Origin: a bacterium
GTDB lineage: Bacteria; Patescibacteriota; Minisyncoccia; Phycocordibacterales; UBA10002
DNA: 42,307 nucleotides
Reading direction: 5' to 3'
Assembly: GCA_030649775.1 (NCBI GenBank)
Contig: JAUSFR010000077.1
Span: forward strand, 1 to 42,307
Below, piece after piece: positions 2,675-35,108 of the stretch. Within the stretch, counting starts at the first letter, position 1, and the number at the start of each line of letters is the position of its first letter. The position numbers were made by a program, and so were the translations under genes. A model generated the notes under the pieces. The model worked only from the letters and a program-made list of their open reading frames with translations. It was not told the origin of the DNA and ran no database searches.

Positions 2675-3454
2675 ATGACCCACATCGTCCCCGCCATCCT
2701 CCCCAAAGATTTTCAAGAGATACTCGCGAAGCTCGAGCTTGTTAAAGGCGCTGTGGACAGCGTTCAAATAGACATTGTTGACGGAAAATTCGCACCGAAC
2801 AAAACATGGCCGTACATCGGCGACCACGGCGAAATCACGAACATAGTTAATGAACAAGAAGGCTTTCCGTTCTGGAAGGATTTTGATTTTGAGTTTGACC
2901 TTATGGTGGTAAAGCCTGAGGAAGCGGTGCCGTTTTGGGTGCGGGCGGGAGCAAGCAGGGTTATTGTGCATATAGAAAGTACGCCACCCGATACACTCTC
3001 GGACATTATCAAAGAATGGAAGCATGCGGTGGATATTGGCCTTGCGCTCAAGCCCTCTACTCCGCTCGAGAAATTGGAAACGTTTTTGCACGAGGTGAGC
3101 TTTGTGCAGTGTATGGGGAATGACAGGATAAGTTTTGGAGGCGTACCGCTTGATGAACGCGTGGTACTCCCGAAAATTGCACACCTACGGAAAAAGTATC
3201 CGGAACTCACCATTAGCGTGGATATTGGGGTGAGTCTTGAAACCGCTCCGAGGCTCATTGAGGCGGGCGCGAGTCGCCTCGTTGCAGGCTCCGCCGTGTT
3301 CGGTAAAGCGAACCCCGCGGGAGCGGTGCGAGAACTTGAACGGCTGTTTACTCTCCACGCAGAATTCCCCGACAGCTTTGCTGCGGGGATGAATGCGGGG
3401 AGAGTGGGAAGGGGGTCGGGGAAACGAGAGTTTCCCCGTGGAGGAAAGCAGTGA
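2675..3454 (+). CDS. rpe: ribulose-phosphate 3-epimerase family protein with an unusual ~35-aa C-terminal tail
   Basis: 259 aa. Epimerase pattern IVPAILP...VQIDIVDGKFAPN. The tail from about nt 3350 is low-complexity and reads through a repeated hairpin, so the real C-terminus is uncertain. Confidence 0.75.
   Translation: MTHIVPAILPKDFQEILAKLELVKGAVDSVQIDIVDGKFAPNKTWPYIGDHGEITNIVNEQEGFPFWKDFDFEFDLMVVKPEEAVPFWVRAGASRVIVHIESTPPDTLSDIIKEWKHAVDIGLALKPSTPLEKLETFLHEVSFVQCMGNDRISFGGVPLDERVVLPKIAHLRKKYPELTISVDIGVSLETAPRLIEAGASRLVAGSAVFGKANPAGAVRELERLFTLHAEFPDSFAAGMNAGRVGRGSGKREFPRGGKQ
3367..3390 (+). repeat. hairpin motif CCCCGACAGCTTTGCTGCGGGGAT (copy inside the rpe tail)
   Basis: Near-identical to 3516-3538 (CCCCGTCAGCTTGCTGCGGGGAT). 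Confidence 0.75.
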
Positions 3455-3515
3455 GCCCGCCAGGGCGAGCGTTGAAAACCGAGAGGTTTGCAAAATAAAT
3501 TCTGCTCGCCTAATA

Positions 3516-3538
3516 CCCCGTCAGCTTGCTGCGGGGAT
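3516..3538 (+). repeat. hairpin motif CCCCGTCAGCTTGCTGCGGGGAT (intergenic copy)
   Basis: Nested in a longer stem, GCTCGCCTAATA (3504-15) / ATAGGACGAGC (3537-47). Confidence 0.75.
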
Positions 3539-3632
3539 AGGACGAGCGGGATTTATTAAGGCGTAGTTGGCGCTATGTGCGGTATCTCGTGTGCTTTTCG
3601 CACTGTCCTTAAAAGTGATATACTTGAGAAGT

Positions 3633-3926
3633 ATGAAGAAAACAAATACAAAAGAAGTAACAATGGAAAATATTGCAACTTTGATTACGGAGTCGCAAGA
3701 AAGTCTTGCTCGTATGGTGGCAAATGGTTTTTCAGAACAGGAAAGGAGAATAACGGACACACTTATTGGAAAGATTGAAGGCGTCGAGACTCGACTGGGA
3801 CAGCAAATCAACGGTTTAAGCAGTCGTATTGATACGCTTGTTGATGATAAAGTTTCGCGGAGTGACCACAAGCTTTTAGCTGACAGAGTATCCAGACTTG
3901 AGATAGCTACTCACGCAAGGAAATAG
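3633..3926 (+). CDS. hypothetical coiled-coil-like protein
   Basis: 97 aa from the first ATG; the track ORF starts at TTG 3567. Heptad-like charged sequence with no recognisable family. AT-richer than its neighbours. Confidence 0.55.
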   Translation: MKKTNTKEVTMENIATLITESQESLARMVANGFSEQERRITDTLIGKIEGVETRLGQQINGLSSRIDTLVDDKVSRSDHKLLADRVSRLEIATHARK

Positions 3927-3932
3927 TTCTCC

Positions 3933-4850
3933 ATGCCATCTTCATCTAAAAATGACGGTACCGTGCATAACCCTACCGATACGCATCTCACGGATGCGGA
4001 GGTAAAAGCGCTTGCCATTAAGGCAAATGAGGTTCGTATCACGCTCATTGAAGCGCTGATTGAAGCGGGGTCCGGACACACCGCGGGACCACTTGGTATG
4101 GCGGATATTTTTACCTACCTCTATTTTCACGAACTCCGGCACGACCCGAAAAATCCCGAGTGGCCGGAGCGCGACAGGCTGGTACTCTCAAACGGACATA
4201 TTTGTCCGGTACTTTATTCGGCGATGGCGCACGCGGGCTATTTCGGTAAGGATGGCGTGGCACAGTTTACGAAAAGCCTTCGCAAATACGGGAGTATCTT
4301 TCAAGGACATCCGCATCGCGAATATATGCCCGCGCTTGAGACGTCCTCCGGACCGCTCGGAAGCGGTCTTTCGCAGGCGGTTGGAATGGCACTCGCGGAG
4401 CGCATTGACGCGGGACGTTCCTACAAAAAATGGTTTTACGCGCTCCTTTCGGATGGTGAGCTTGAAGAAGGGAACAGCTGGGAAGGCGCGATGCTCGCGG
4501 GTAAAGAGAAGCTCGGCAATCTCATCGCGATTGTTGACCGCAATAATATTCAGATAGACGGCTTTACCGAGGATATTATGCCCCTTGAGCCACTCTCCGA
4601 TAAATGGCAGGCGTTCAACTGGCATGTGATTGAAGTAAATGGACACGATTTCGCGGATATCCACCGAGCGATAGGCGAGGCCAAGGCCGAGTTTGATATG
4701 CCGACCGTACTTATCGCAAACACCATCCCCGGCAAGGGCGTCCCCGATTTTGAACGAAAGTTTGAGTGGCACGGCAAGCCCCCCACACCAAAAGAGGGAG
4801 AGATGGCTCTAGCGGTGCTTAGGGAGCTGGGAGAGAAAATCTCCAAATAG
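3933..4850 (+). CDS. transketolase, N-terminal (ThDP-binding) subunit
   Basis: 305 aa. Motifs GSGHTAGPLGMADI, QGHPH and LSDGELEEGNSWE, typical of the split-transketolase N-terminal half. Confidence 0.92.
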   Translation: MPSSSKNDGTVHNPTDTHLTDAEVKALAIKANEVRITLIEALIEAGSGHTAGPLGMADIFTYLYFHELRHDPKNPEWPERDRLVLSNGHICPVLYSAMAHAGYFGKDGVAQFTKSLRKYGSIFQGHPHREYMPALETSSGPLGSGLSQAVGMALAERIDAGRSYKKWFYALLSDGELEEGNSWEGAMLAGKEKLGNLIAIVDRNNIQIDGFTEDIMPLEPLSDKWQAFNWHVIEVNGHDFADIHRAIGEAKAEFDMPTVLIANTIPGKGVPDFERKFEWHGKPPTPKEGEMALAVLRELGEKISK

Positions 4851-4872
4851 TATGAAAGGTATCTTTAGAGCT

Positions 4873-4947
4873 TTTGGTGAGGGGCAAGCCACGAATAAGG
4901 AGGAAGGCGCGATGGCGCTTAGGGAGATCGGTGAAAAGATGGCGTAG
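4873..4947 (+). pseudogene. decayed duplicate of the transketolase N-subunit 3' end (copy 1)
   Basis: Translates as GQATNKEEGAMALREIGEKMA* against the authentic HGKPPTPKEGEMALAVLRELGEKISK* (nt 4767-4850). Nucleotide similarity is visible by eye. Confidence 0.7.
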
Positions 4948-5022
4948 GTGTGAGAGACAGTTGATTGAACTCCGTGATGGCCGAGCGTATACTTATAGTT
5001 ACTTATTAACTTATAAAGGTCT

Positions 5023-5328
5023 ATGAAAGAAAAAAAATTAAAACCCGTTCTTTCCCTTCTCGTATTTTTGGAAACGGTGTATCTGTGTTTGAGTCTCACG
5101 ATGATTTATTTTACGGTGTTTTTCCCGTCCCCCGCGGATAAACTGGCGATTACGAGTTGGGTTATCTTCTCCTATTTCTTATTGCCCGCGCTCCTCTTTA
5201 AGAATGTGGTGGTGTCCACGCTCAAAAAGGGAGTGCTTTCTAAGGAAGATAAGATGTGGCTTATCCTCCGTTGCAGTATCTATCTTTTGCTCACCGTCTA
5301 CTCATACCCGCTCATTGTGCGGGTGTAA
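5023..5328 (+). CDS. hypothetical membrane protein (about 3 TM segments)
   Basis: 101 aa with hydrophobic segments throughout. Lies between two tkt-N 3' fragments. Confidence 0.55.
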   Translation: MKEKKLKPVLSLLVFLETVYLCLSLTMIYFTVFFPSPADKLAITSWVIFSYFLLPALLFKNVVVSTLKKGVLSKEDKMWLILRCSIYLLLTVYSYPLIVRV

Positions 5329-5361
5329 GGGGTGTAACGGATAGAATATCCTTTCCTCGTG

Positions 5362-5470
5362 CCCTATTTTGAACGTACGTTTGAATGATATGGCACAAGC
5401 CTCCGAACAAGGGGGAAAGGCGTGATGGTGCTAAAAGTCTTGCGGGAGTTAGGCGAGGGAATAGGTGAGA
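5362..5470 (+). pseudogene. decayed, frameshifted duplicate of the transketolase N-subunit 3' end (copy 2)
   Basis: Reads FERTFE*, then WHKPPNKGE, then after a frameshift MVLKVLRELGEGIGE. The authentic sequence is DFERKFEWHGKPPTPKEGEMALAVLRELGEKISK. Confidence 0.7.
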
Positions 5471-5483
5471 GTACTGACAGCGT

Positions 5484-5789
5484 ATGAGAGTAATGTACAT
5501 AGCTAAGGTAAAGAAATTCATTGAATCGTTAGATGACGTTCTGGCGTTTCGAGTCGCTCGGAGCATTGACTCTTTGGAGCGATACGGAAATCTACTTGGA
5601 CTGCCTGTGTCCAAGGCCATGGGCAAAGGGTTGTTTGAATTAAGAATTACTGGGGACAACCACATCAGGATCTTTTACTGTTTCCACAATAATAACGCTG
5701 TCATTTTACACGCAATTTTTAAACAACATCACTCAATTCCTAAGAGGGAGATTGAATATGCGAGAAAAACAATAAAAGAGTTGCGGTAA
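5484..5789 (+). CDS. type II toxin, RelE/ParE superfamily (HigB / phage Gp49-like)
   Basis: 101 aa. The pattern GLFELRITGDNHIRIFYCFHNNNAVILHAIFKQHHSIPKREIEYA is typical of Gp49/HigB-like toxins. It precedes an XRE-HTH gene, which is the toxin-first HigBA order. Confidence 0.75.
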   Translation: MRVMYIAKVKKFIESLDDVLAFRVARSIDSLERYGNLLGLPVSKAMGKGLFELRITGDNHIRIFYCFHNNNAVILHAIFKQHHSIPKREIEYARKTIKELR

Positions 5790-5807
5790 GATAACACACA
5801 TGTTATC
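5790..5807. promoter_or_regulatory. inverted repeat GATAACA-CACA-TGTTATC between the toxin and antitoxin genes
   Basis: Perfect 7-bp arms, with a third half-site ATGTTAT at 5808-5814 abutting the antitoxin ATG. Could be an operator or a translational-coupling hairpin. Confidence 0.35.
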
Positions 5808-5815
5808 ATGTTATT

Positions 5816-6106
5816 ATGAAAAATAAACACACATTGCGATTGGTAACGCACCAAGAACTCAAAAGGGAGCTCTTCAGGAGACCTGGGGTTCGAAAAGCAT
5901 ACGAGGAGCTGGAGTTTGAATTTAAGATTATGGACGCACTCATACGCGCGCGAATTAAGAAGAAACTCACTCAGCGAGGACTTGCTCAGAAAATCGGCGT
6001 GGCGCAGTCCGCGCTTGCGCGTTTTGAATCCGGACGGACGAACCCGACGCTCTCTTTCCTGAAAAAGGTTACGGTGGGGTTGGGGCTGAAGCTTTCGGTG
6101 AAGTAG
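5816..6106 (+). CDS. XRE-family helix-turn-helix antitoxin (HigA-like)
   Basis: 96 aa. HTH segment LTQRGLAQKIGVAQSALARFESGRTNPTLSFLKKV. Confidence 0.8.
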   Translation: MKNKHTLRLVTHQELKRELFRRPGVRKAYEELEFEFKIMDALIRARIKKKLTQRGLAQKIGVAQSALARFESGRTNPTLSFLKKVTVGLGLKLSVK

Positions 6107-6124
6107 AGGAAAAAGCTGTTAGCT

Positions 6125-6466
6125 GTGAAGAAAGAAGAAATCGTTAATCTGTGGTTAATTAAAGATACTGTGAAAATAAATATCTTTGGAATGCTGGGTA
6201 TTGTAGGTGTAATAATAATATGGATAGTTTCTTATTTGTTTTCACGAACATTAGATGGTGTTGAGGCGCTTGGATTTGGTGCGCTTCCTCTATTTGCGTC
6301 TTCTCTTTGGATAGCGTCTCTGGTTTTTATTGCGACGGCAATATCACTTAAAGATTTATCTAGACAACAGAATAAATTAGCATTTTTAATCCCACGGGTC
6401 TTTCTGCTTTTAGTGAGTGGTCTCGTAATCCTTAATTTCTGTTTTATAGCTATACGTTATATTTAA
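6125..6466 (+). CDS. hypothetical membrane protein (3-4 TM segments)
   Basis: 113 aa with a GTG start. Markedly AT-rich. Lies directly downstream of the HigBA-like pair. Confidence 0.55.
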   Translation: MKKEEIVNLWLIKDTVKINIFGMLGIVGVIIIWIVSYLFSRTLDGVEALGFGALPLFASSLWIASLVFIATAISLKDLSRQQNKLAFLIPRVFLLLVSGLVILNFCFIAIRYI

Positions 6467-6469
6467 TCC

Positions 6470-6562
6470 ATGCTCAATTTTTCCCTTAAACTCAACCCCA
6501 AACTTTGGGACAAAGACATAGAGCAAGCGCCAATTCGCAAGGGGTTTGGCGAAGGATTTTGA
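6470..6562 (+). pseudogene. duplicate of the transketolase C-subunit 5' end (30-codon stub)
   Basis: MLNFSLKLNPKLWDKDIEQAPIRKGFGEGF* against the authentic MSTMLTISQKLNPKLWDKDIEQAPIRKGFGEGLL (7064 onward). Near-identical nucleotides over about 85 nt. Confidence 0.85.
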
Positions 6563-6571
6563 TGCTGATCT

Positions 6572-6991
6572 ATGGCTTTTGCAAAGACAATAAAGAGATT
6601 TCTGGAGTGGATTGGGTTGAAAGAGAAACTACACATCTCGGTACATCAACCACCTCTTTTCAAGGAGAGCGAGATTTGGTGGTGTCACCTCGGCGAAAAT
6701 ATCGGAATTGAGGCGAATGGAAAGGGAGACAAGTTCACTCGTCCCGTTTTTGTTCTCAAAAAGTACGATCGATATTCTTTTCTCGGCCTACCGCTTACTA
6801 CCAAACTGAAAGAGGGGTCATGGTATGCGCCGATTGGCTTTGCGGGAGTCAAACAGGTTATCATGTTGTCGCAAGGCAGGGTTCTTGACTATCGGCGTCT
6901 GAAAGAAAAGATGGGCGAGCTGGAAGAGAAGGAAGCGACGACGGTTAAAGACGCATACCTCAAGCTTCATAGTGCCTCTATAAAAAAATAG
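6572..6991 (+). CDS. PemK/MazF-like toxin-fold protein with no adjacent antitoxin
   Basis: 139 aa. The pattern SEIWWCHLGENIGIEANGKGDKFTRPVFVLKK...LPLTTK...MLSQGRVLDYRRL resembles the MazF/PemK SH3-like barrel pattern. Confidence 0.6.
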   Translation: MAFAKTIKRFLEWIGLKEKLHISVHQPPLFKESEIWWCHLGENIGIEANGKGDKFTRPVFVLKKYDRYSFLGLPLTTKLKEGSWYAPIGFAGVKQVIMLSQGRVLDYRRLKEKMGELEEKEATTVKDAYLKLHSASIKK

Positions 6992-6993
6992 AC

Positions 6994-7015
6994 CTCCCGC
7001 CGTTTCCGGCGGGAG
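6994..7015 (+). terminator. hairpin CTCCCGCCG-TTTC-CGGCGGGAG after the MazF-like gene
   Basis: 9-bp GC-rich stem 3 nt after the stop codon, with no clear T-tract. Confidence 0.35.
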
Positions 7016-7063
7016 TCGTGGGATAATCCCAAATAGAGTCACAGTTTATCAAAGTAAGGTATA

Positions 7064-8077
7064 ATGTCAACCATGCTTACTATATCTCAAAAACTCAACC
7101 CAAAACTTTGGGACAAAGACATAGAGCAAGCGCCAATTCGTAAGGGGTTTGGCGAGGGACTGCTTTCCGCGGGCGAAACGGATGAACGAGTGGTGGGACT
7201 CTGTGCCGACCTTACCGAATCTACCCAGATGCACCTTTTCAAAAATAAGTTTCCGAACCGTTTTATAGAAATGGGTGTGGCCGAACAGAATCTCGTGACC
7301 GTCGCCTCCGGTATGGCGGCTATGGGGAAAATCCCGTTTTGCACGTCCTACGCTATGTTTAGCCCGGGGAGGAATTGGGAGCAAATCCGCACCACCATTT
7401 GTTACAACGACCGTCCCGTAAAGATTGTGGGCAGTCACGCAGGAGTTTCCGTGGGTCCCGACGGAGGGACGCATCAGGCCGTTGAAGATTTGGCGATTAT
7501 GCGGGTACTCCCCAATATGTGCGTGCTCTCACCTTGTGATGCGATTGAAGCGAAGAAAGCGACCCTTGCGTGCGCCAAGACGAAAACTCCGACCTATATT
7601 CGGCTTGCGCGGGAGAAAACTCCGATTATTACCACTGTGGAAACGCCGTTTGAAATAGGGAAGGCACAAATATTCTATAAAACACCAATAACCAATAACC
7701 AATCACCAAAAAGAGTGGGGATTATTGCGACGGGGGGATTGCTGTACAAGGCGCTTGTCGCCGCGAAAGAGCTGGAAGAAGAGGGAATTGCGGTCACGGT
7801 ACTTAATCTTGCTACCATTAAACCGCTTGATGTAGAGGCTATCACCGAACTCGCAAGGGAGTGCGGAAAACTGGTTACGGTTGAGGAGCATCAAATCGCT
7901 GGAGGAATGGGCTCCGCGGTTGCCGAGGTTCTCGCTCGCACGACGCCTGTGCCTATGGAGTTTGTCGGTGTGAAGGATGTCTTCGGGCAATCGGGTTCAC
8001 CCGAACAGATTGTTGAACACTACGGTATGGGCGTTTCGCATATCAAACAGGCGGTGCAGAGGCTCATTCTCCGTTAA
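7064..8077 (+). CDS. transketolase, C-terminal (pyrimidine-binding) subunit
   Basis: 337 aa. Motifs FIEMGVAEQNLV and GGTHQAVEDLAIMR. Contains an in-frame heptamer array at 7684-7711. Confidence 0.92.
   Translation: MSTMLTISQKLNPKLWDKDIEQAPIRKGFGEGLLSAGETDERVVGLCADLTESTQMHLFKNKFPNRFIEMGVAEQNLVTVASGMAAMGKIPFCTSYAMFSPGRNWEQIRTTICYNDRPVKIVGSHAGVSVGPDGGTHQAVEDLAIMRVLPNMCVLSPCDAIEAKKATLACAKTKTPTYIRLAREKTPIITTVETPFEIGKAQIFYKTPITNNQSPKRVGIIATGGLLYKALVAAKELEEEGIAVTVLNLATIKPLDVEAITELARECGKLVTVEEHQIAGGMGSAVAEVLARTTPVPMEFVGVKDVFGQSGSPEQIVEHYGMGVSHIKQAVQRLILR
7684..7711 (+). repeat. tandem heptamers ACCAATA ACCAATA ACCAATC ACCAAAA inside the tkt C-subunit
   Basis: Read directly from the sequence. Encodes part of TPITNNQSPK. 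Confidence 0.9.
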
Positions 8078-8136
8078 ACAGGCATTTCGCATATCAAATA
8101 ACCTCCCACTTAACCTAAAAACAAATTATCAAGTAA

Positions 8137-8166
8137 TTACTATCTTACTACGTAGTAAGATAGTAA
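8137..8166. repeat. 30-nt perfect palindrome TTACTATCTTACTAC|GTAGTAAGATAGTAA (candidate operator)
   Basis: All 15 arm positions pair. Ends 9 nt upstream of the ATG at 8176. A 26-nt core copy lies at 8656-8681. Confidence 0.9.
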
Positions 8167-8175
8167 ATCATCACC

Positions 8176-8646
8176 ATGGCGCGATTCAAACCGGAGCGTC
8201 TTTCAACAAAGGAAAAATATGGACTTCTCAAAGAGTTCTGGACAACGCTGGCGCTTTTGGAGGATGTTGAGCAAATACAGAACTTTCTGAAGGATTTATT
8301 GAGCGAAACCGAGGCCGTAATGCTTGCACGCCGCCTGAAGATCGCAAAGCTCATCTATCAAGGTAAGAGTTACGAAGCCATCGAGAAACTTATGCACGCT
8401 TCGCCAACGACGATTGCCTCAGTCCATTCATGGCTTGATGGGGGGTTTGGTGGGTATCTTCAAGGTATCCAAAAGTTAAGAGAGGAGCTGGGACGGCAAG
8501 CGGTGCTTCAGGAGAAAAAGGAACAGTCTCTTGACCCACTTTCTTTGGAGGGCCTAAAAAAGCGATATCCGCTGCATTTTTTACTTTTCAATACCGCAGA
8601 TGAGATGAAATATAGAGCTCCCAAAAGGTTGCGAAAGAAGCACTAA
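8176..8646 (+). CDS. TrpR-related YerC/YecD-like DNA-binding protein with a C-terminal extension
   Basis: 156 aa. The segment FLKDLLSETEAVMLARRLKIAKLIYQGKSYEAIEKLMHASPTTIASVHSWLDGGFGGY matches the YerC/YecD pattern. Confidence 0.7.
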   Translation: MARFKPERLSTKEKYGLLKEFWTTLALLEDVEQIQNFLKDLLSETEAVMLARRLKIAKLIYQGKSYEAIEKLMHASPTTIASVHSWLDGGFGGYLQGIQKLREELGRQAVLQEKKEQSLDPLSLEGLKKRYPLHFLLFNTADEMKYRAPKRLRKKH

Positions 8647-8655
8647 TATTACCCC

Positions 8656-8681
8656 ACTATCTTACTACGTAGTAAGATAGT
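8656..8681. repeat. 26-nt perfect palindrome ACTATCTTACTAC|GTAGTAAGATAGT (second copy)
   Basis: Identical to the core of 8137-8166. Starts 9 nt after the stop codon of the YerC-like gene. Confidence 0.9.
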
Positions 8682-8683
8682 AC

Positions 8684-8814
8684 TGTGCGAACGTGAATTC
8701 TGCGTAGCTAAAACATAGCTACGGCGAGGACGAGACCACTCGGTTTGGGGCATTATGGGATGACGGTGGGAGATATCAAAAAAGCGGTCCTCGCCGTGCT
8801 CAAACGTTCACACA
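8684..8814. other. about 130-nt nested inverted-repeat element (structured RNA or MITE-like)
   Basis: The outer arms TGTGCGAACGT (8684-8694) and ACGTTCACACA (8804-8814) pair 10/11. Inside are GTAGCTA-AAACA-TAGCTAC (8704-8722) and CGGCGAGGAC (8722-8731) / GTCCTCGCCG (8787-8796). Lies between convergent genes. Confidence 0.4.
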
Positions 8815-8826
8815 TCGCGTGAGAGC

Positions 8827-9831
8827 TTACTCGATCTTTTTTGGTGTGTAATCCTCTGGAGCGGAGGCGAGATAGGTCTCAAGTAGAGAGCGAGTGAGGA
8901 GTCCTTTCTGCGCTCCGATTTGTTGCACGACGTACGCGGAGTTCACCGGTGCCCACCTAAGCGCTTCCAGTACCGGTTTCCCAAGAATAATGGCGGAGGT
9001 GAAGGTTGAGGCGAAGGCGTCGCCCGCTCCGGTTCGGCTTATTGGTGGTTTAGGGTCGGGGTAGATGGGCTGGAACCAGCAGTCGCCGATTGCGGTATCG
9101 TAGGCGTAGGCACCCTTGGGGCCATCCGTGATGCAAACGGTTTTTGGGCCGAGGGCGCTTAACCCGTGAAGCAGTTTCTTGATGTCGGTTTCTTCGGTTT
9201 CCAAGATGCGTCGTGATTCCTCAAGGTTGCAGAAGAAGAGGGTGGAACGCGCATAGAGCTTTTTGAGTTTTTCTTTGCCCAATTTCATTTGGAAGGTGCC
9301 CGGCTGGAAGGAGAGTTGTACCTCTGGATGCGCCTCAAGATAGCTCGCGAGTTCCTCGTGATAGGGTTCGGAATTACCGCCAAGAGAAGAAAGATATATC
9401 CATTTTGGCGCTGGTGCGATAGTCGGAAGCTTGTACGGATATTCCTCGTGCTTCACAAGGATGGTGCGTTCGTCTTCAAACCACAAGACATAGTGATAGT
9501 TGGTCTTCGCGCCCTTGTGGGTTGTCACCAAATGGGTATCCACCTGTTCCGTGCGGAGCGTTTCCATACACTCGCGTCCATTTTCGTCATCACCTATGTC
9601 GGCTACGAGTCCCGACGAGAGGCCAAGCCGTGCCGCGGAAACACTGGCGTTCGGGGAATTACCCACAGCCCGCACCACTTCCACGAATTCGTAGGGAATC
9701 TTGTCCGCGAAACGCATAGAAAGCGTGCAGTTCACTTTGTCGATATCACACGAAACACTGGCCTCTTTGAGCCGAATGAACGCGTCGGTGGTAATATCGC
9801 CGATGGCGAGGAAATCAAGTTGGTTTTTCAT
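8827..9831 (-). CDS. PfkB-family carbohydrate/nucleoside kinase
   Basis: 334 aa. C-terminal PfkB signature RTGAGDAFASTF and an N-terminal GDITTD-type motif. Confidence 0.85.
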   Translation of the reverse strand: MKNQLDFLAIGDITTDAFIRLKEASVSCDIDKVNCTLSMRFADKIPYEFVEVVRAVGNSPNASVSAARLGLSSGLVADIGDDENGRECMETLRTEQVDTHLVTTHKGAKTNYHYVLWFEDERTILVKHEEYPYKLPTIAPAPKWIYLSSLGGNSEPYHEELASYLEAHPEVQLSFQPGTFQMKLGKEKLKKLYARSTLFFCNLEESRRILETEETDIKKLLHGLSALGPKTVCITDGPKGAYAYDTAIGDCWFQPIYPDPKPPISRTGAGDAFASTFTSAIILGKPVLEALRWAPVNSAYVVQQIGAQKGLLTRSLLETYLASAPEDYTPKKIE

Positions 9832-9925
9832 GCTGATGATTATAGCACATTCGGTTTTTCTCTTAGCAGTACTTTGTGCTATGCTCTTACAAACTCACCA
9901 TACAAATACGAAAGGAGGTGATGGT

Positions 9926-10090
9926 ATGTTCTTAATTATAATGGAAGACATTCCGCAGCCACCTGCGGAGTTCCCACCCGGGGTCTATGTCCCGGTCCTG
10001 GTCATTGGCCTTTGTTTCGCCGTTATCTACGTTGCTCGAGCCATTTCCGGCAGAAAAGAAGAGCGGGATGCCTGTGAAGAAGAAGAGTAA
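9926..10090 (+). CDS. small single-pass membrane protein
   Basis: 54 aa. Strong SD AAAGGAGGTG 6-8 nt upstream of the ATG, one TM segment (VYVPVLVIGLCFAVIYVA) and an acidic tail. Confidence 0.5.
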   Translation: MFLIIMEDIPQPPAEFPPGVYVPVLVIGLCFAVIYVARAISGRKEERDACEEEE

Positions 10091-21707: not shown

Positions 21708-22307
21708 ATGCGAGCAAGTCAGGTTAGGGGACTAAAGAAGAAAAAAGAACGGAAGAATCGAATTGCCGTAGTGCAAAAAGCAGTACTCTATGCGCTTGTA
21801 GCGGCAGGAGGACTTTCTATGGCTCTGGTCGCACCTAATGCCTTGCGGGTTCTAGAGCAGTTTGGATGGGTGAAGACGAAACGTCCTTTTCGCTTTACCG
21901 TTAGTCGTTCAGTAGAGCGGTTGGAGAAGGCGAGGCTTGTTACTGTGGATAAGAAAGGCTTTATTACATTAACCAAAATCGGTGAGCAGAGGATTTCAGA
22001 AATAGAACGCGCGGATTACCAGCTTTCTATTCCCGAAAAGTGGGATGGAAAGTGGAGGGTAGTCAGTTTTGATATAAAGGAGAAAAGAAAGAAAGTTCGA
22101 GAGTTACTTAGATGGACGCTTCAGAGTGTTGGGTTTGTACATCTCCATCATAGTGTCTGGGTATATCCTCACGACTGCGAAGATTTTCTTTCGCTTCTCA
22201 AGGCGGACTATCATATTGGTGTAGAGATTCTGTACATCATCGCTGAATACATAGAAAATGACGATTGGCTCCGTAGACATTTCGGCCTGAGTGGCAAGAA
22301 GGTCTAA
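21708..22307 (+). CDS. wHTH + PaaX-middle/Cas2-like domain protein (putative DNA-binding regulator or nuclease)
   Basis: 199 aa. Basic N-terminus and wHTH-like region, then WDGKWRVVSFDIKEKRKKVRELLRWTLQSVGFVHLHHSVWVYP (beta-alpha-beta with an Asp after strand 1). Paralog of 34500-35108. Confidence 0.6.
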   Translation: MRASQVRGLKKKKERKNRIAVVQKAVLYALVAAGGLSMALVAPNALRVLEQFGWVKTKRPFRFTVSRSVERLEKARLVTVDKKGFITLTKIGEQRISEIERADYQLSIPEKWDGKWRVVSFDIKEKRKKVRELLRWTLQSVGFVHLHHSVWVYPHDCEDFLSLLKADYHIGVEILYIIAEYIENDDWLRRHFGLSGKKV

Positions 22308-34499: not shown

Positions 34500-35108
34500 A
34501 TGGAGATGTTCCCCAATAAGGAGGCGAAAAAGAAGAAGAGAGGAGTAAAACGAATCTATAGTCCGACAAAGATGAAGATTCTTTTGTTGCTTCAGGCCGG
34601 AGTCGCACTTTCATTTGCGGGCACGCTTTCGAAGCAGTTTCGGATTTTGGGAGAACTTGCGGATGAGTGGAAAGGCGTTGAGCGTGCATACCTCTCGCGG
34701 ATTATCCGGGAGTTTTATACCGACCGGTTGGTTTCCATGACCGAAAATGGGAATGGTACTGTAACTGCCGTACTAACCGAAAAAGGGAAGAAGCGCGCTA
34801 TTACGTTCAATTTAAGCTGTATGGAAGTCAGGGTCCCCGAAGTATGGGATGGACTCTGGCACATGGTAATCTTTGATATTCCCGAAAAATATAAGGTCGC
34901 TCGATATTCTCTCCGTGATAAACTCCTTGCCCTCGGCTTCTTTCAATGTCAGAAGTCGGTCTATATTCACCCATTCTCGTGTGAGGATGAAGTCGATTTC
35001 ATCTCAAACTTTTTTAAAGTAGGACGTTATGTGCGCTACGGCGTCATAAAGCGCATCACCAATGAAGAGGAGCTTCTCCTTAGGTTTAACCTCAAGAAAC
35101 CCATTTAG
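34500..35108 (+). CDS. wHTH + PaaX-middle/Cas2-like domain protein (paralog of 21708-22307)
   Basis: 202 aa. WDGLWHMVIFDIPEKYKVARYSLRDKLLALGFFQCQKSVYIHP, and the shared downstream motif P-x-x-CED. Confidence 0.6.
   Translation: MEMFPNKEAKKKKRGVKRIYSPTKMKILLLLQAGVALSFAGTLSKQFRILGELADEWKGVERAYLSRIIREFYTDRLVSMTENGNGTVTAVLTEKGKKRAITFNLSCMEVRVPEVWDGLWHMVIFDIPEKYKVARYSLRDKLLALGFFQCQKSVYIHPFSCEDEVDFISNFFKVGRYVRYGVIKRITNEEELLLRFNLKKPI

Follow-up and report, generated by a model that had tools for sequence, protein, structure and literature searches.

Background

Small cassettes that carry no mobility genes, and whose content varies from strain to strain while the conserved genes on either side stay the same, are known in Neisseria as minimal mobile elements (MMEs) or replacement flexible genomic islets, and their movement has been attributed to natural transformation and homologous recombination in the flanks (PMC1797815, PMC3787668, PMC4033161). 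The present analysis concerns a comparable site, the junction between the two halves of a split transketolase gene (tktN and tktC), in a 42,307-bp stretch of DNA (assembly GCA_030649775.1, contig JAUSFR010000077.1, positions 1 to 42,307 of the forward strand; 'the window'). The window is a contig of a metagenome-assembled genome (MAG), of which 42 kb is visible, and the host is a bacterium of the Paceibacteria (Parcubacteria) in the candidate phyla radiation (CPR). As in the Neisseria MMEs, alternative cassettes are found between the same conserved flanking genes in different relatives of this bacterium, without mobility genes. In contrast to the MMEs, the site lies here within an operon of a CPR host and is flanked by the halves of one split essential enzyme, additive insertions are frequent, with stacks of up to five cargo genes, and truncated copies of the flanking gene ends, referred to below as stubs, are present, which is not a described MME feature.

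A second kind of system is homology-facilitated illegitimate recombination (HFIR), in which one homologous joint is combined with one illegitimate joint at 3-10 bp of microhomology (PMC3240628). In most clones, the entry of recircularised, partly degraded fragments by a single crossover "unexpectedly" led to a partial duplication of the end of the target gene (PMC3240628). Both are known from laboratory crosses (PMC3240628; pneumococcus/Acinetobacter), whereas the events at the tkt junction, if rightly read, would be natural, recurrent, nested and class-wide. The gene-end duplication left by a single crossover has the geometry of the stubs, and no dedicated recombinase is needed for it.

Chromosomal integrons also resemble the tkt slot, in that they hold same-orientation, mostly promoterless small open reading frames (ORFs), rich in toxin-antitoxin (TA) modules and membrane proteins of no recognised family, which are added sequentially at one site. 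The tkt slot, however, has no IntI, attI, or attC-type imperfect palindromes, and its repeat is a copy of a neighbouring housekeeping gene end. A further class comprises elements that target gene ends, such as phage 21 and e14, whose target is the 3' end of icd, SXT, which enters prfC at its 5' end, and the accretion of cis-mobilisable elements and integrative and conjugative elements at fda. These elements encode or depend on a site-specific recombinase and have one fixed core. As at the tkt junction, the insert supplies a replacement end, the original end persists as a pseudogene stub on the far side, and repeated events give arrays of stubs; in contrast, the tkt junction has no visible recombinase and its crossover positions vary. 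CPR bacteria (Patescibacteria) have tiny genomes with few recognisable mobile elements, and accessory gene gain in them is therefore poorly understood.

Results

Content of the tktN-tktC junction in related genomes

In Paceibacteria the tktN-tktC junction is a cassette slot, as are, less markedly, the junctions next to it in the pentose-phosphate operon. The junction was compared in 139 loci (77 GTDB species representatives and 62 metagenome contigs, cited below by L or P numbers), and was scored as adjacent when the two halves overlap or lie ≤ 60 bp apart, and as occupied when they are > 90 bp apart. The halves are adjacent in 52 of the 77 GTDB loci and in 26 of the 62 metagenome loci (78/139 in total), while the junction is occupied in 22 GTDB loci (up to 1,368 bp) and 34 metagenome loci (up to 2,878 bp), or 56/139 in total. 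The occupants vary, and include tiny membrane ORFs, HigBA, MazF-like, NUDIX, HD-domain, Bro-N, pilin-like, PDDEXK_3 and DUF4349 genes, together with others of no recognised family. A previous sequence-only reading of the window had proposed that the junction is an insertion hot spot, and had suggested the comparison with related genomes; the empty sites and individual cassettes it anticipated are both found, and the content is variable.

Within the window's own clade (tktN 83-90% identical), all states of the junction are represented. It is empty in P0008, with an ATGA stop/start overlap of the two halves; it measures 160 bp in L082, and holds one 94-aa membrane ORF in L091, HigBA in L093, HigBA and MazF without stubs in L092, HigBA with a tktN-end stub and a membrane ORF in L088-90, and a 2.9-kb set in L100. 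In L083-86 there are six ORFs, two of them stub ORFs, in the order of a PDDEXK_3 gene, a tktC-start stub, two ORFs, a second tktC-start stub, and one ORF.

The same cargo families recur at the tkt junction in distant lineages. HigB homologues are found there in L089, L092, L093, L002, L036, and L037 with only 31-50% identity to that of the window, HigA homologues with 62-73%, and MazF homologues in L092 (55%) and L045 (48%). The shared cargo families are far more divergent than the flanks, HigB being 31-77% identical where tktN is 85-89% identical.

The gap-rpiB, rpe-tktN, and tktC-pfkB junctions also differ in content among the own-clade genomes. Therefore, the tkt junction is the busiest of several slots rather than the sole one. 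Between gap and rpiB the window has a gene for a bAvd-like (23S-rRNA intervening-sequence protein) four-helix bundle at 1767-2120; the relatives have there a pilin-like gene or small ORFs of no recognised family, which makes this another variable slot.

Truncated transketolase ends in the junction

In the window the two halves of the transketolase gene, both intact, are separated by 2,213 bp (the 'islet') with five ORFs, all on one strand. The features of the junction are as follows.

3933-4850, plus strand: tktN, transketolase N-terminal half, intact (Pfam Transketolase_N, 1.5e-64)
4852-4947, plus strand: stubA, intact 31-codon ORF, in which 4882-4947 copies the clade-consensus tktN 3' end (..NKEEGAMAL-REIGEKMA and stop)
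5023-5328, plus strand: cargo, small membrane protein 1, 101 aa, no Pfam match, 3-4 transmembrane (TM)-like segments, GC 0.435
5358-5487, plus strand: stubB, decayed copy of the tktN end (last ~36 codons), which has acquired an indel and an in-frame stop
5484-5789, plus strand: cargo, HigB-like toxin (Gp49/DUF891; Pfam PF05973, 1.9e-16)
5816-6106, plus strand: cargo, HigA-like HTH antitoxin (Pfam HTH_3, 5.5e-13)
6125-6466, plus strand: cargo, small membrane protein 2, 113 aa, three TM-like segments, no significant Pfam family, GC 0.339
6468-6562, plus strand: stubC, first 29 tktC codons plus F and stop (homology 6468-6556)
6572-6991, plus strand: cargo, solitary MazF/PemK-like gene, 139 aa (Pfam PemK_toxin, 1e-8)
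6994-7072, plus strand: right end of the MazF unit, with a G+C hairpin (6994-7015), a spacer, and a promoter-like GTCACA-16-TATAAT (7038-7065)
7064-8077, plus strand (alternative start at 7073): tktC, transketolase C-terminal half, intact (Pfam Transket_pyr, 1.7e-41; Transketolase_C, 1.5e-28)

These coordinates and Pfam matches agree with the sequence-only reading, which had listed two membrane proteins, a HigB/HigA-like pair, and a solitary MazF-like gene in a 2.2-kb gap, together with three decayed tkt-end stubs. Its proposed comparison of the tkt ends with the islet gave significant similarity for all three stubs, that of stubA being to the alleles of relatives.

The strongest case is stubC. 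Positions 6461-6556 are 86-89% identical to 7064-7159 at the nucleotide level, with a perfect run of 38 nt (blastn 89% over 89 nt, E=4.5e-29; tblastn E=3.5e-15). The differences from the resident tktC are patchy, with 8 in the first 30 nt, which are of the clade-consensus type, and 2 in the next 57 nt, which are nearly identical to the resident gene. This patchiness points to a crossover or a gene-conversion tract inside the repeat rather than uniform decay. The second stub, stubB, matches the tktN C-terminus over 5359-5469 with 54% identity in 37 aa (tblastn E=4.9e-6 against the window and 3e-7 against the islet), and over 38 nt with 79% identity (blastn E=5.7e-4). It holds a mini-ORF (5425-5487), whose TGA overlaps the HigB ATG as ATGA (5484-5487). 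The similarity of stubA (4882-4944) to the resident tktN end is weak (tblastn E=0.037 in the window, 0.003 in the islet), but is clear with the tktN ends of the relatives L089, L092, L093, and L091 (E=4e-6 to 3e-5), and is highest with the L089 allele (69.6% over 23 aa, E=4e-6). The first part of stubA, IFRAFGEG (4861-4881), is possibly, and tentatively, a remnant of the GFGEG segment of the tktC start. In that case the whole ORF (IFRAFGEG followed by NKEEGAMAL...) may be a decayed example of the fusion of a tktC start to a tktN end seen in L164 (see below), which is again a tentative assignment.

Within the window, the stubs are specific to the tkt genes. When 90 end queries (40-45 aa) from 45 ORFs were searched against the window, nearby copies on the same strand were found only for tkt ends. 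A 16-nt sequence, GGnGTTwGGCGArGGA, shared by positions 5445, 6541, and 7144 was considered as a crossover site and rejected, as it merely represents GFGEG/RELGEG codons and its flanks have no further similarity. On the interpretation of the stubs as scars, it should be cautioned for annotation that short ORFs such as MLNFSLKLNPKLWDKD... are relics rather than genes.

Linkage between gene-end alleles and cargo

In general it is the stubs that have the clade-consensus allele, and the working ends of the genes are divergent where they adjoin cargo. Comparison with the relatives identifies as divergent alleles both the final ~36 codons of the resident tktN (..TPKEGEMALAVLRELGEKISK, then stop) and the first ~10 codons of the resident tktC (M(ST)MLTISQ..), the latter being linked to the MazF unit. 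Over its first 30 nt, stubC matches the real start of L082 at 25/30 positions and the window's own at 22/30. Similarly, the first stub of L083 matches the real starts of L089 and L093 at 27/30 and that of L083 itself at 21/30, while the real tktC starts of L083 and L092 resemble each other and form a distinct allele. StubA and stubD (a tktC 3'-end stub behind tktC, described below) also fit the alleles of other genomes.

The MazF gene, hairpin, spacer, and tktC start form one unit conserved between the window and L092, in which the stretch between MazF and tktC (window 6992-7072 versus L092:8049-8122) comprises the G+C hairpin, a CGTGG-like motif, and an AT-rich stretch with the promoter-like TATAAT. 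The displaced ends keep their old neighbours: stubB abuts HigB as tktN does in L092 and L093, and stubD abuts pfkB. The insert supplies a new end for the gene, the previous end is left as a stub, and the target ORF is of full length. Consensus stubs combined with divergent, cargo-linked working ends indicate that incoming DNA brought its own tkt end and displaced the resident one. This is in line with the sequence-only reading, in which insertions were repeated and additive, a copy of a tkt terminus being brought in or displaced each time, and the tkt frames stayed intact.

Stubs in other lineages

Stubs of tkt ends also occur in at least nine other lineages, namely in L083 (two), L088 (one), L032, L055 (two), L031, L124, L129, L147, and L164 (two), and behind tktC in L062. 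Most occupied junctions have none, for example L093 and L092, the latter with the same HigBA and MazF cargo as the window. When 1,071 genes in 84 loci were scanned blindly, non-paralogous copies of gene ends turned up almost only at the tkt junction, behind GAPDH, and in L040. The GAPDH 3'-end stubs are in the same operon, two in L018 (2540-3921), each just before a small cargo ORF, and one in L022 (3821-3865). Therefore, the stub phenomenon is not confined to tkt.

One edge of the stubs varies. Those of the tktC start end after ~12 codons in L147, 13-16 in L124, L032, L055, and L031, 20 or more in L129, 29 in the window, and 32 and ~40 in L083, while those of the tktN end begin at -36, -27, and -21 codons. 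The opposite edge of every stub is the native tktN-tktC boundary. In L164 (5941-6060) a tktC-start stub is fused straight to a tktN-end stub, so that the order is cargo, C-start', N-end', real C-start. L040 (6316-6492) shows a tandem duplication of a junction, in the order A-end, B-start', A-end', B-start, with a run of N (XXX in the translation), and this may be a scaffolding artefact rather than biology.

At five joints the stub overlaps the following cargo gene as ATGA (window 5484-5487, L083:7907-7910 and 9363-9366, L124:~1132-1135, and L147:~3922-3925), which mirrors the ATGA coupling of tktN and tktC at empty sites. Surviving stubs tend to be short ORFs with an overlap of this kind, and from this arrangement they are probably retained as translational-coupling leaders that pass translation down the operon to the cargo. 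We favour selection as the source of the overlaps, since the last gene of the operon is essential and translation has to reach it, but a precise mechanism could also have produced them.

A unit of 125-127 nt, composed of tktC codons 1-16, a ~65-nt hairpin (GACCCC...ACGGGGCRRGAC), and an AT-rich spacer, lies directly before tktC, once or twice, in three loci.

L032:939-1066: 125-127-nt hairpin unit
L055:1147-1400: the same unit, in tandem
L031:7880-8009: the same unit

The hairpin shows compensatory changes (covariation), and a conserved 12-mer of the unit is found nowhere else in 90 loci. L031, L032, and L055 are non-sister lineages with the same unit boundary, and their nearest relatives have empty junctions. 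It may represent either a small mobile element or a cassette without cargo. A structured RNA or riboswitch at the junction was rejected on the basis of Rfam searches, which gave no match in window 3000-10000 and, in L032 and L055, only sub-threshold leader-like matches away from the junction.

The slot behind tktC

A second set of stubs and cargo is found between tktC and pfkB (8827-9831, minus strand).

8081-8101, plus strand: short tktC 3'-end stub (GISHIK and stop), 3 nt past the real stop, 17/18 nt identical to 8030-8047
8138-8682, plus strand: TrpR-family cassette with an ORF at 8176-8646 (Pfam Trp_repressor, 1e-12)
8745-8822, plus strand: stubD, a newly found C-terminal stub of tktC, its displaced 3' end (HYGMTVGDIKKAVLAVLKR; LGHYGMTVGDIKKAVLAVLKRSHIA, then stop)

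The 18-nt repeat (8030-8047/8081-8098; E=0.014), which reads GISHIK and stop against the real GVSHIKQ, bears out a tandem duplicate of the tktC 3' end noted in the sequence-only reading. In tblastn, the similarity of stubD to tktC has E=0.010 when the whole window is searched, and 9e-5 to 4e-4 when the search is confined to the 750-bp downstream slot. It is nearest to an L082-type allele, and it retains the native tail-to-tail junction with pfkB. Judged from the order of these features (real end, 21-nt mini-stub, TrpR-family cassette, stubD, pfkB), the slot appears to record a second additive event, behind tktC.

The TrpR-family cassette is flanked by two identical 27-nt perfect palindromes, ACTATCTTACTACGTAGTAAGATAGTA (8138-8165 and 8655-8682), which occur nowhere else in the window (0 expected by chance) and are absent from 95 loci. 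They may be operators of the TrpR-like protein or cassette ends. The repeated ATTTCGCATAT (8084-8094) was considered as a Xer/dif-like site and rejected, since it matches only a XerC-like half-site and lacks a second arm.

Cargo genes

The HigB-like Gp49 and HTH_3 genes are 26 nt apart, which is the arrangement of a type II TA pair. The stop of membrane protein 2 is 3 nt upstream of the stubC ATG. The MazF/PemK-like gene has no adjoining antitoxin ORF, with stubC upstream, the hairpin downstream, and nothing else. As the promoter-like GTCACA-16-TATAAT directly adjoins the tktC start, the MazF cassette seems, from its sequence, to supply a terminator and possibly a promoter for tktC. The GC content of the islet is 0.434 versus 0.533 for tktN and 0.514 for tktC, a difference that emerged from the profile suggested earlier.

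Elsewhere in the window, amid housekeeping genes, two paralogues of ~200 aa (21708-22307 and 34500-35108) contain the PaaX central Cas2-like domain (~5e-19).

Search for mobility genes

A Pfam scan of all sizeable ORFs found no integrase, transposase, or recombinase in the 42-kb window, so that the absence of a visible integrase, noted previously, is confirmed for this range. A Pfam scan of the larger cargo ORFs tested from ~60 occupied junctions found no integrase either. The only mobility-gene match in junction cargo is one IS200-like Y1_Tnp, in L068 (2519-3145, minus strand). Y1_Tnp genes (IS200-like, RAYT-like) are also found directly upstream of gap in L083 (2999-3730), L088 (3599-4324), L092 (2471-3181), and L093 (1482-2201), and near the operon in L036, L075, and others. 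There is no Y1_Tnp gene in the window, and the presence of such genes does not correlate with stubs, since L092 and L093 have Y1_Tnp and no stubs.

An inverted-repeat search of 3500-9000 for attC-type sites gave one hairpin (6994-7015) and the TrpR palindromes, and not one site per cassette. A degenerate pattern of the tktC start had no match in IMG/VR viral contigs, nor had a lineage-specific pattern in JGI metagenomes, and with these searches empty an attP carrying a tkt start on a phage or plasmid was rejected. A genome-wide hairpin motif like that of repetitive extragenic palindromes was abandoned because the loose pattern was non-specific. The bAvd-like gene at 1767-2120 prompted consideration of template and variable repeats of a diversity-generating retroelement; this was rejected, there being no reverse transcriptase and the target being the end of a housekeeping enzyme. 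The differences in stubC did not look adenine-directed in the alignments, although no base-by-base count was made.

Discussion

Proposed recombination anchored in the tkt genes

The variable boundaries, the scar-free majority of occupied junctions, and the linkage between alleles and cargo are together best fitted by homologous recombination anchored in the tkt genes, which would exchange cassettes and leave the stubs as scars of additive events (single crossover or HFIR). We hold this explanation with about even confidence. Small cargo (TA modules, tiny membrane proteins, and others) would be swapped between related genomes, with the conserved tkt genes as homology arms, and each cassette would therefore travel with an adjoining piece of tktN or tktC. 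The exchange would involve DNA uptake and depend on RecA. Its usual outcome would be a double crossover, giving a clean replacement or insertion without a scar. Occasionally the event would be additive, either because homologous pairing on one side is combined with an illegitimate join on the other (HFIR), or because a single crossover takes in a degraded fragment that has recircularised. In both cases the incoming gene end would become the working end, and the resident end would be moved aside as a truncated stub to which its former neighbour stays attached. Read in this way, the sequence of the window suggests a history of at least three nested additive events in the junction and one or two behind tktC.

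Several observations agree with such a mechanism. Partial duplications of the target gene end flank the inserts (stubA-D; L164). The variation in stub boundaries (12 to ~40 codons for tktC starts, -21 to -36 for tktN ends) is as expected from illegitimate joints. The order end, start', end', start in L164 and L040 is predicted by a single crossover of a circularised junction fragment. Moreover, Patescibacteria have been shown to have natural competence, with the DNA integrated by homologous recombination (PMC10633639).

Other observations weigh against tkt-anchored recombination. The Patescibacteria in which competence has been demonstrated are Saccharibacteria rather than Paceibacteria (PMC10633639). 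The joint between stubC and MazF is confined to 6557-6571, but no pre-insertion recipient or donor sequence was found in which an illegitimate joint or its microhomology could be read. The cassettes extend very little beyond their ORFs (at most 15 nt separate the start of the MazF unit from its ATG), which is more cassette-like than random ends would be, barring selection, and the ATGA overlaps at the five stub-to-cargo joints likewise require a selective explanation. The unit of L031, L032, and L055, with its one boundary, looks more site-specific or element-like. Finally, homologous exchange would be inefficient between lineages whose tkt proteins are ~70% identical. It was also considered whether TA addiction forces the events to be additive, replacement of a TA module being lethal; this was rejected, because stubs are not enriched at TA-bearing junctions, and L002, L036, L037, L045, L092, and L093 have TA cargo without stubs.

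Alternative explanations

The most serious alternative is tandem accretion of site-specific integrative elements or cis-mobilisable cassettes, which carry gene ends in their attP and are moved by a recombinase of the tyrosine or serine type, acting in trans or since lost. The targets would be the 3' end of tktN or tktC and the 5' end of tktC. The architecture of gene-end-targeting elements is exactly that observed, the insert supplying the working end, the old end being displaced, and the frames being restored; the 38-nt identical run of stubC and tktC could be the core, and the tight borders, the same-orientation, promoterless ORFs, and the fixed boundary and conserved hairpin of the unit in three non-sister lineages would all be accounted for. 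As only 42 kb of the genome is visible, the recombinase could be encoded elsewhere. Against this, intact elements would be expected sometimes, and neither the window nor the larger cargo ORFs tested from ~60 occupied junctions contain an integrase; the crossover positions differ between independent stubs, from 12 to ~40 codons; the identical run of stubA or stubB with the real end is ≤ 10 nt; most occupied junctions are free of repeats, including L092 with the same cargo; and the tkt-start motif is absent from IMG/VR viral contigs. Accretion of this kind is thus unlikely, though it deserves serious consideration, and the comparison with site-specific islands that target gene ends, which had been drawn in the sequence-only reading, is not upheld by the boundaries, the cargo, and the stub-free majority.

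A bolder version of tkt-anchored recombination would be that Paceibacteria run an integron-like, recombinase-free cassette system, in which truncated ends of housekeeping genes serve as portable, att-like homology arms. Host recombination would then capture, stack, excise, and reshuffle cassettes inside essential operons, and the stubs, co-opted as short leader ORFs, would pass ribosomes on to the cargo through the ATGA overlaps. In a sub-variant, the 125-127-nt unit of L031, L032, and L055 would be a self-contained mobile mini-element. We consider this version doubtful.

Still less probable is that a single-strand (HUH/Y1, RAYT-like) transposase, or some other unrecognised enzyme, moves hairpin mini-cassettes of which the stubs are a part. 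The Y1_Tnp genes near the operon in many relatives, and within the junction in L068, speak for such an enzyme, as do the conserved hairpin unit before tktC in L031, L032, and L055 and the hairpin followed by a CGTGG-like motif before tktC in the window and L092. In contrast, the window has no Y1_Tnp, stubs and Y1_Tnp genes are uncorrelated (L092, L093), insertions of the IS200/IS605 type do not duplicate tens of target bases, and the loose hairpin motif is not specific. In view of the tight borders, the ATGA overlaps, and the L031/L032/L055 unit, both an integrase in trans and a Y1-like enzyme stay candidates.

A purely local origin, in which the tkt junction underwent tandem duplication or slippage within the lineage and then decayed, the cargo having arisen or moved in independently and the gene ends not being imported, is quite improbable. 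It would give the order end, start', end', start of L040 and L164, and stubC does share window-specific variants (ATAGAGCAAGCGCCAATT) with the resident gene. However, stubA, the first 30 nt of stubC, stubD, and both stubs of L083 are closer to the alleles of other lineages than to the resident ones, the patchy divergence of stubC indicates a recombination breakpoint or gene conversion and not uniform decay, and the cargo families are common to distant lineages at the same slot.

Lastly, it is very hard to believe that a metagenome assembler concatenated strain variants of the junction, as might be supposed for a MAG contig given that an independent contig (L081) stops within the 38-nt repeat and that L040 has a run of N inside its duplicated junction, because stubA and stubB are truncated and ~78% identical to the real end, stubB with a stop and an indel, unlike the co-existing functional alleles of co-assembled strains, while L081 reproduces 3370-6529 exactly and the arrangements of relatives recur between samples and assemblers.

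L081, a Logan contig, is 100% identical to this range, including stubA, stubB, and the start of stubC, and breaks only within the 38-nt repeat core, as expected from a k=31 assembler. The two-stub order of L083 recurs in four independent samples, and the arrangement of L088 in three. The link from stubC to MazF is taken from the MAG; exact-protein look-ups of tktC (with its two alternative starts) and of MazF returned no record, which leaves this link without confirmation in a second assembly, while the unit from MazF through the hairpin and spacer to tktC is homologous in L092.

Conclusion

The locus combines known kinds of systems, slots of the MME type and scars of the HFIR or single-crossover type, in a group in which the mechanisms of gene gain are obscure. 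It is a readable record, in which one operon junction has been struck repeatedly across a class, with cassettes welded to pieces of core genes. If the interpretation of the stubs as scars is true, gene-end stubs would be a cheap genomic marker of transformation-driven gene gain in uncultured bacteria, and insertions in an essential, translationally coupled operon would be tolerated when the coupling is preserved.

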